A stretch of 28,080 nucleotides of DNA from a virus (IMGVR_UViG_2565956624_000022:1-28080); one strand, 5' to 3'. Shown: positions 23,704-24,406, counted from the first letter of the stretch. The notes: generated by a model from the letters alone, not told the origin. Program-made: numbers and translations.

Positions 23704-24108
23704 ATGAATGATGTTTATGCAGTTGTTGATAATAACGTTGTTATTAATGTCATTATCTGGGACGGAATTTCTGAATGGAAACCAGAGGCTGGTAATTTAG
23801 TTCCGTTAAACGGCGATGCTGGCATCGGTTGGTCATATTCAGACGGAGTATTTACCGCGCCACCTCCCCCAGAACGCTCTCACAACGCGTTAGTTGCGGA
23901 GGCTGAGCTGCAGAAATCAGCACTACTGACCGTAGCAAATAACGCAATAGCACCGCTGCAGGATGCCGTTGATTTGGAAATGGCGACAGACGATGAACAG
24001 ACGTTACTGCTGGCGTGGAAAAAATACAGGGTACTGCTGAACCGTGTTGATACCTCAGCGGCACCCGAAATAGAGTGGCCTACGCAACCGGGGGAGCGGG
24101 CCAGTTGA
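23704..24108 (+). CDS. Tail fiber assembly protein (Tfa)
   Basis: 134 aa; C-terminal [28 protein letters not shown] matches the conserved Tfa chaperone C-terminus; start abuts the fiber stop. Confidence 0.8.
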
Positions 24109-24217
24109 TATCAGGCGCAGGGGCAGCATCAACTGCTGTCACTGCGTCGATGTAGTCGAGTACCGCATTCATCCGCCTTTTTTCATCATCAGTCAGTTTG
24201 CGTCCTACACCTCTCCG
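24080..24217 (-). pseudogene. Relic 3' fragment of a second tail-fiber-assembly gene, convergent with Tfa
   Basis: Minus-strand open frame encodes ...[38 protein letters not shown], paralleling the + strand Tfa C-terminus (TDDEQ...[11 protein letters not shown]); no N-terminal body. Confidence 0.45.
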
Positions 24218-24406
24218 TTAACATCTTTGTTATATGGTACAACTGCGCAGAGGCCTGTCTCTCCAATTGTGCCAGTTGAATACTACGATACAACGCTAGG
24301 TCTTCCTATTTGGTGGAACATAACCACATCCACATGGAAAAGAGCTGATGGTGCAGATGTATAATTCTGGTGCCGCGCATGCGGCACCAATAAAAAACAT
24401 ATTAAA

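Follow-up and report, generated by a model that had tools for sequence, protein, structure and literature searches.

The spacer behind a prophage tail-fibre assembly gene joins two dead gene ends, probably from a lost inversion switch and a podovirus tailspike arm

In an Escherichia coli prophage, a spacer of 298 bp separates a tail-fibre assembly gene (tfa) from gtrC, the nearest gene of an O-antigen glucosylation cargo, and raises the question of which genes, if any, once occupied it. The original prediction took it for the relic of a second, inverted tfa gene from a lost inversion system, possibly truncated when the gtr cargo was acquired. The stretch of DNA analysed here (the window, 28,080 nt; IMGVR_UViG_2565956624_000022:1-28080) consists of the late-gene half and the right end of the prophage, is 100% identical to sequence from E. 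coli FDAARGOS_1288, and has its prophage end adjoining ybhB-bioA. An intact tail-fibre gene (22663–23703, plus strand; 346 aa; Pfam Gly_rich_2, E 1e-16) is made up of an N-terminal constant part (22663–23047), specific to the window's type of myovirus, and a C-terminal variable part (from ~23074), a glycine-rich receptor-binding domain common to other phage types. The intact tfa that follows (23704–24108, plus strand; 134 aa; Pfam Caudo_TAP, E 1e-32) encodes the chaperone and is 96–100% identical among 25 related loci. On the far side of the spacer, gtrC (24407–25882), gtrB (25879–26796) and gtrA (26793–27155) occupy the minus strand, convergent with the tail genes, and adjoin the prophage end and ybhB. 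Outside the relics described below, the longest ORF of the spacer reaches at most 45 codons, which agrees with its having been called otherwise non-coding.

The protein at the gtrC position (491 aa) has no Pfam match at E ≤ 1 and is hypothetical in PGAP. Its allele is present in only 12 of 5426 E. coli genomes, and the same slot in relatives is occupied by at least three other proteins, unrelated or ~31% identical.

The minus strand at 24080–24211 encodes the last 42–43 codons and the stop of a convergent TfaE-type gene (tfa'), ~21% of a 200-aa protein. These 43 aa matched PF02413 (Caudo_TAP; E 2.6e-9, 37.8 bits against a cut-off of 22.1 bits) at profile positions 95–130 of 131 only, and a complete reading frame is absent; the Tfa-like C-terminus predicted opposite the 3' end of tfa is therefore genuine. 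An ORF with an ATG start covers 30 codons (24080–24172), homology continues in frame as far as 24211 (GVGRKLTDDEKRR...), and a stop at 24218–24220 closes the frame. The relic is 66–67% identical to the C-termini of e14 TfaE, SfIV gp22 and a P2-like Tfa', compared to 40% over 35 aa for the neighbouring Tfa. Its closest full-length relatives (71–74%) belong to a P2-like convergent pair and to an invertible region next to Hin/Cin in a P1-like phage, while a search of the 43 aa against 5.8 billion proteins returned only six short relic fragments. The relic and tfa physically overlap over 29 nt (24080–24108), and an identical convergent overlap occurs in e14, SfIV, two P2-like loci (L005 and L171) and CPS-53 of K-12. 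The relic frame is free of indels and stops in 18 variants, and it drifts in the manner of a pseudogene: compared to one relative, 7 of 102 nt differ (6 nonsynonymous, 1 synonymous), against 1 of 375 in tfa. RefSeq/PGAP labels it ‘tail fiber assembly protein, incomplete; missing N-terminus’, so the relic is already known at the annotation level; no paper describing its pairing with a second relic was found in the literature.

This second relic lies on the plus strand. The fragment ending at 24364 was originally described as tail-fibre-like; it is real, and in tblastn it matched tailspikes, not fibres. Positions 24233–24364 hold the last 43 codons and the stop of a tailspike gene, encoding YGTTAQRPVSPIVPVEYYDTTLGLPIWWNITTSTWKRADGADV followed by the stop, with the pattern YGTTAQRP...YYDTTLGLPIWW...WKRADGADV. 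Against the final 41 aa of the tailspike of a P22-like prophage in E. coli MB53, where an integrase follows the tailspike, the relic scores 63% identity (E 1e-19); other C-terminal matches were to the tailspike regions of CBA120 orf212, Henuyfy11N and AV104, and in all four the alignment ends 0–1 residue from the stop. A shared motif, GTTAQRP...YxDTTLGxPIWW, makes up the last ~42 residues of the relic, up to the stop. The best tailspike matches are only 62–63% identical in amino acids, with one DNA match of 84 nt at 76%. No homology to the catalytic or beta-helix body of a tailspike was found upstream of 24233, where the DNA is the antisense of the tfa' relic. The last 4–15 codons of the tailspike relic co-vary with the type of cargo downstream, and its frame is shifted by a 4-nt indel in two relatives (L027 and L033). 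The fragment was also considered as a piece of a second fibre (Sv', the alternative variable part) in a multi-inversion system and rejected as such, given its match to tailspike C-termini, its wrong orientation and its co-variation with the cargo. The plus-strand frame that contains the relic extends back across the antisense of the tfa' relic for a total of 85 open codons (24110–24364); of 18 variants, 16 keep it open, and the only break is the same 4-nt indel.

Between the two relics, TfaE homology stops at ~24205–24211 and tailspike homology begins at 24233–24236. The intervening 24212–24232 have no recognisable homology and are presumed to be the joint of an illegitimate recombination. A GC-rich hairpin (24368–24389) separates the stop of the tailspike relic from that of gtrC, with predicted folding energies of −19.8 and −20.6 kcal/mol on the two strands (z ~ −4.5); neither strand has a T-run and a terminator scan was negative. 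Its position parallels the annotated terminator between tailspike and oac in Sf6 and the RyeG terminator in K-12, and it is likely an old inter-operon terminator, as predicted from folding and position. From the relic stop to the convergent cargo, the order and orientation of the window are like those of Sf6, in which a tailspike gene (plus), a terminator, oac (minus), intS (minus) and attP follow one another. The Sf6/P22-type succession of tailspike (plus), hairpin, convergent cargo and prophage end is present here, with the integrase lying outside the window. In a relative with oac at argW (L002), oac and intS come after the tailspike relic, and 1327 nt of the int-attP region match Sf6 at 96.8% identity. 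Unlike Sf6 and P22, the window has only the last 43 tailspike codons, the C-terminal motif belongs to a tailspike family other than that of Sf6, and the host phage is a myovirus. No donor podovirus with the window's gtrC beside an intact tailspike was found in the E. coli genomes or the phage collection.

A crossover sequence was to be looked for at the end of the constant region of the fibre gene, and a single Pin/Gin-type crossover-like site of 26 bp (CTCTTTCATACC-TT-GGTTTGGGAGAT) occurs there at 23048–23073, recognised by its similarity to e14 pixL. The site encodes LGLG at the constant/variable junction (fibre codons ~129–137). Positions 23055–23075 (ATACCTTGGTTTGGGAGATGG) are identical to pixL at 19 of 21 positions, and the left half-site reads ATACC, versus AAACC. 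The 18-nt core occurs once in the 28 kb, with 1 mismatch (chance expectation, 0.01), and no second site was found on either strand at ≤3 mismatches to this core or ≤2 to the 12-nt palindromic core. In e14 the two inverted repeat arms, AAACCTTGGTTTGGGAGAAGG and its complement, are 1797 nt apart, in agreement with the 1797 bp given for the P segment (PMC12529663). As predicted, the window contains neither an invertase (tblastn of PinE against the whole window, best E 3.9) nor a second fibre gene or Sv', and no invertase is annotated across 42 kb of the source genome.

The breakpoint of the mosaic, at 23057, is within the site, and all 25 close relatives begin to match there. An alignment (A2) of seven contexts had an invariant core, TTGGTTTGGGAGA, that joins unrelated left and right flanks. 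The window's fibre has a unique left flank and the shared variable part (Sv) on the right; the E. coli 042 fibre joins the e14 StfP constant region to the same Sv. In e14, pixL lies between the StfP constant region and the e14 Sv (the C-terminal part of StfP), and pixR between the pinE side and the e14 Sv' (stfE). The P2-like locus L034 contributes two contexts, a site beside its invertase that leads into the same Sv as the window and an active fibre that joins its own constant region to a different Sv. The SfIV fibre carries the e14 StfP constant region on the left, and its sequence ends just past the core. Across 70 IMG/VR loci the N-terminus of the window's fibre was combined with many other C-termini, and no intact invertase was present in any of them. 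The crossover-like sequence could persist for the sake of the conserved LGLG peptide, serving merely as a hotspot of homologous recombination.

Measured against a Din-family switch, the window has the site at the fibre constant/variable junction and lacks an adjacent serine invertase, two inverted sites and two sets of Sv and chaperone. The G segment of Mu and the C segment of P1 (Gin/Cin) share with it the constant fibre, the 26-bp site, and the variable part with its chaperone and a convergent second chaperone, and the closest full-length homologue of the tfa' relic lies next to Hin/Cin in a P1-like phage; unlike these, the window has one site, one Sv and no invertase, so switching is impossible. 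Intact cassettes, as sought among relatives at this position, occur in e14, in L034, and in P2-like and P1-like phages. The e14 P segment (stfP-tfaP / tfaE-stfE', pinE) keeps the whole cassette stfP-tfaP-tfaE-stfE'-pinE, and the window is like it in the 29-nt convergent overlap, in the crossover core (19/21) and in a relic of TfaE type, which shares 66% identity with the C-terminus of TfaE. In relatives of the E. coli 042 type, the same module is preceded by the StfP constant region and the YmfQ baseplate gene, and the N-terminus of their fibre is all but identical to that of e14 StfP as far as LGLG. Unlike e14, the window keeps only 21% of tfa', has no stfE-like Sv', second site or pin, and combines a fibre N-terminus unrelated to StfP with a glycine-rich domain as its Sv.

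In L034 (IMGVR_UViG_2571042420_000006), the invertase is 84% identical to PinE and 21-nt inverted repeats (95% complementary) lie 1846 nt apart. The resulting 1.9-kb segment holds, in silent position, the glycine-rich Sv and Tfa module of the window at 96–97% amino acid identity. This module is paired with a second Gly-rich Sv' that has no TfaE-type gene, and L034 is for that reason not the direct ancestor. Across complete E. coli genomes, GTDB species representatives (3 distant loci only) and IMG/VR, no relative was found in which the same Tfa stands together with an Sv', an invertase and a full Tfa' that matches the relic at ≥90% identity. The proposal of a lost inversion system is largely supported by the site, by L034 and by the e14 cassettes, and the tfa' relic is most plausibly the remnant of a Pin/Gin-type invertible fibre cassette; since no such relative was found, we infer, rather than observe, that the direct ancestor was invertible, as we do the order of events.

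The decay is older than the window's prophage and more widely shared. The relic pair, with the same inner breakpoints, was present in ~70 of 5426 complete E. coli genomes and on ~25 IMG/VR contigs, at two chromosomal sites (the ybhB side and argW) and beside at least five cargoes (four gtrC types and oac). All of the ~70 genomes had one orientation relative to the fibre N-terminus, with no rearranged variants seen. The right arm, from the crossover-like site onward, is ~98–99% identical in E. coli 042-type prophages, and the part of the window's prophage that precedes 23057 belongs to another type of myovirus, with DUF2612/DUF3383 tail genes. Because of this different upstream type, the arm is taken to have been imported already decayed, and a working switch need never have existed in the window's prophage itself. 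Since ~70 genomes share identical relics beside at least five cargoes, the loss took place neither in this prophage nor at its acquisition of the gtr genes. The suggested tie between truncation and cargo consequently survives in part: the tfa' relic does abut a tailspike end, which in Sf6 precedes the cargo, but the acquisition of the present gtr genes was not the occasion. The variation among the relics points to neutral drift combined with cargo exchange by recombination within the tailspike relic.

Four other explanations bear on this evidence. That the minus-strand similarity reflects local dyad symmetry at the 3' end of tfa, or chance, has in its favour that the 29-nt overlap starts with TGGCC and ends with GGCCA and that both genes encode a W-P motif. 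Palindromy is excluded since only these 29 nt overlap, blastn of the relic against tfa gave no match elsewhere and no other DNA self-similarity exists, and the relic is nearer to TfaE than to its neighbour; with ~100 nt of homology past the tfa stop codon, the Pfam match already given, and a PGAP-annotated relic kept in ~70 genomes, this explanation is vanishingly improbable. A more serious alternative is a static second fibre and chaperone pair on the opposite strand that was later truncated, so that tfa' never stood in an invertible cassette. SfIV supplies its best example, with gp21/gp22 as a convergent pair in the same position, gtr cargo downstream, and a full-length Tfa' without an invertase; the authors of the SfIV paper take Tfa' as an extra chaperone and do not mention there an origin in an inversion cassette. 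The window itself has no second crossover site left, as a static pair would have it. SfIV gp22 is 92% identical to e14 TfaE over residues 30–200 (and 66% to the window's relic). However, the SfIV fibre also has the crossover core, and an IS element lies exactly where Sv' and the invertase would sit. With its full-length Tfa' followed by this IS and no tailspike relic, SfIV differs from the window as an intermediate, earlier stage of decay. Among the loci sampled, complete or near-full-length convergent Tfa' genes are mostly flanked by a Pin homologue, while every locus with the 42-codon relic lacks one, and in L034 the same Sv-Tfa module lies inside an invertible segment. A static origin is accordingly unlikely.

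The other two alternatives concern present function. The nearest described parallel to the window is CPS-53 (KpLE1) of K-12 (yfdL-yfdK-tfaS-ryeG/yodE-yfdI-yfdH-yfdG-intS), which has a fibre, Tfa, a truncated pseudogene of TfaE type (tfaS) that converges on it with the 29-nt overlap, a short hairpin spacer and gtrC-gtrB-gtrA. Its spacer (L098, 4998–5606; the positional equivalent of 24109–24406) carries, between tfaS and yfdI, ryeG/yodE, an ORF for a toxic protein of 48 aa that is both transcribed and translated and has a hairpin behind it (PMC7498339). On this model, the relic ORFs could have been exapted as small expressed genes, the candidates being the 30-codon minus-strand ORF (24080–24172) and a 45-codon plus-strand ORF (within the 85-codon frame) that ends at 24364 and is followed by the hairpin. 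Both the intact tfa' frame in 18 variants and the plus frame that stays open for 85 codons in 16 of 18 are consistent with such a role, but YodE resembles neither ORF in sequence, both ORFs lack a preceding promoter-like site or Shine-Dalgarno sequence, divergence of the tfa' relic is nearly all nonsynonymous, and the tailspike relic is frameshifted in L027 and L033; exaptation is very unlikely. CPS-53 further differs from the window in that tfaS keeps ~100 codons, against 42, and in that only the tfa region aligns (70% over 103 nt). The K-12 spacer does not resemble the tailspike relic, and with YodE matching no phage there is nothing to show that this spacer derives from a tailspike; the truncation in CPS-53 looks independent of that in the window. 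Alternatively, the crossover-like site might still be used in trans by the Pin-family invertases of other prophages, giving module exchange or large inversions. In favour of this, the P segment of e14 is inverted in trans by PinQ of the Qin prophage (PMC12529663), only 2 of 21 aligned positions separate the site from the pixL arm of e14, and the breakpoint at which three phage types have exchanged modules falls exactly on it. Yet there is no partner site within 28 kb, the left half-site is ATACC and not AAACC, homologous recombination explains the breakpoints equally well, and the ~70 genomes include no rearranged variants, all of which makes continued use in trans highly improbable.

The spacer is probably the fossil joint of two dead gene ends, one from a lost inversion switch and one from a podovirus tailspike arm. 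On this account, the ancestor would have been a myovirus with an e14/SfV-type tail module and a Pin/Gin-type invertible host-range cassette, in the order constant fibre N-terminus, crossover site, Sv, tfa, convergent tfa', Sv', second site and invertase. Illegitimate recombination may then have fused tfa', broken ~42 codons before its end, to a tailspike gene broken ~43 codons before its own, the donor being the right arm of a P22/Sf6-type podovirus (tailspike, terminator, O-antigen-modification cargo, attP and int). The event would have cost the phage Sv', the second crossover site, the invertase and the greater part of tfa', frozen the fibre in one orientation and installed a module for serotype conversion and integration. 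Later swaps of gtrC and oac would have come about by homologous recombination with the tailspike relic as the left arm, and the window's prophage, of the other myovirus type, may have taken the arm from 23057 to the prophage end by recombining in the crossover-site/LGLG sequence. The relics are probably non-functional today, and the single fibre and single Tfa would be the expressed genes.

Read as the joint of a switch and a tailspike arm, the locus would document the loss of a programmable host-range switch through one illegitimate join to a podovirus right arm, the same join having eliminated both invertase and alternative fibre while supplying the module for serotype conversion and integration. 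It would also provide two short conserved sequences as recurrent junctions for module exchange among E. coli/Shigella myoviruses and podoviruses, the crossover-site/LGLG core and the tailspike 3' end. An orphan annotated pseudogene is thereby explained and an unannotated tailspike fragment identified; no new mechanism is involved, and the locus is an ordinary, well-resolved scar of phage mosaicism. A more speculative and very unlikely possibility is that the lone crossover-like site is a live docking point at which Pin-family invertases, acting in trans, capture or exchange Sv-Tfa cassettes between unrelated prophages of one cell; if true, this would explain how three unrelated tail types share the module with the breakpoint inside the site. 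A weaker second reading would make the ORF of the tailspike relic and its hairpin a putative RyeG/YodE-like gene for an expressed small protein.

Several smaller observations were made along the window and its relatives. A P22 immI-like cluster lies inside the myovirus tail-gene cluster at ~15293–16827 (12694–14228 in relative L008), with a minus-strand Arc-family repressor gene, a small ORF and an antirepressor with a P22AR C-terminal domain. Within tfa, 23900–24059 (plus strand) gave a sub-threshold match to the Rfam model IS009 (RF02111; 47 bits versus a gathering cut-off of 117, E 1e-9), and this ‘sRNA’ model seems to pick up conserved tfa coding sequence; the remainder of the Rfam scan gave one noise match. 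Other loci represent further stages in the decay of fibre inversion cassettes, with truncated forms of pin: L130 (6933–7504) has a convergent Tfa' and only the last 18 codons of pin, L053 and L056–L058 (7232–7630) have pin without its first 51 codons, and L061–L063 (7227–7358) keep only its first 44 codons. In L044 (6001–6528), a different fibre and the N-terminal part of a different Tfa are joined inside tfa, from Tfa residue 64 (73% identity), and downstream of the joint are the same Tfa 3' end, tfa' relic, tailspike relic and gtrC, so recombination also occurs within tfa. Finally, in E. coli 042 (L003, 5715–6647), L002 and L095–L097, PGAP splits the fibre into two overlapping features, a ‘stfP pseudogene, missing C-terminus’ and a ‘glycine-rich domain-containing protein’. 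The fibre there is one uninterrupted 310-codon ORF joined at the LGLG/crossover site, and this mis-split annotation of E. coli 042-type prophages is likely an artefact of the mosaic junction.
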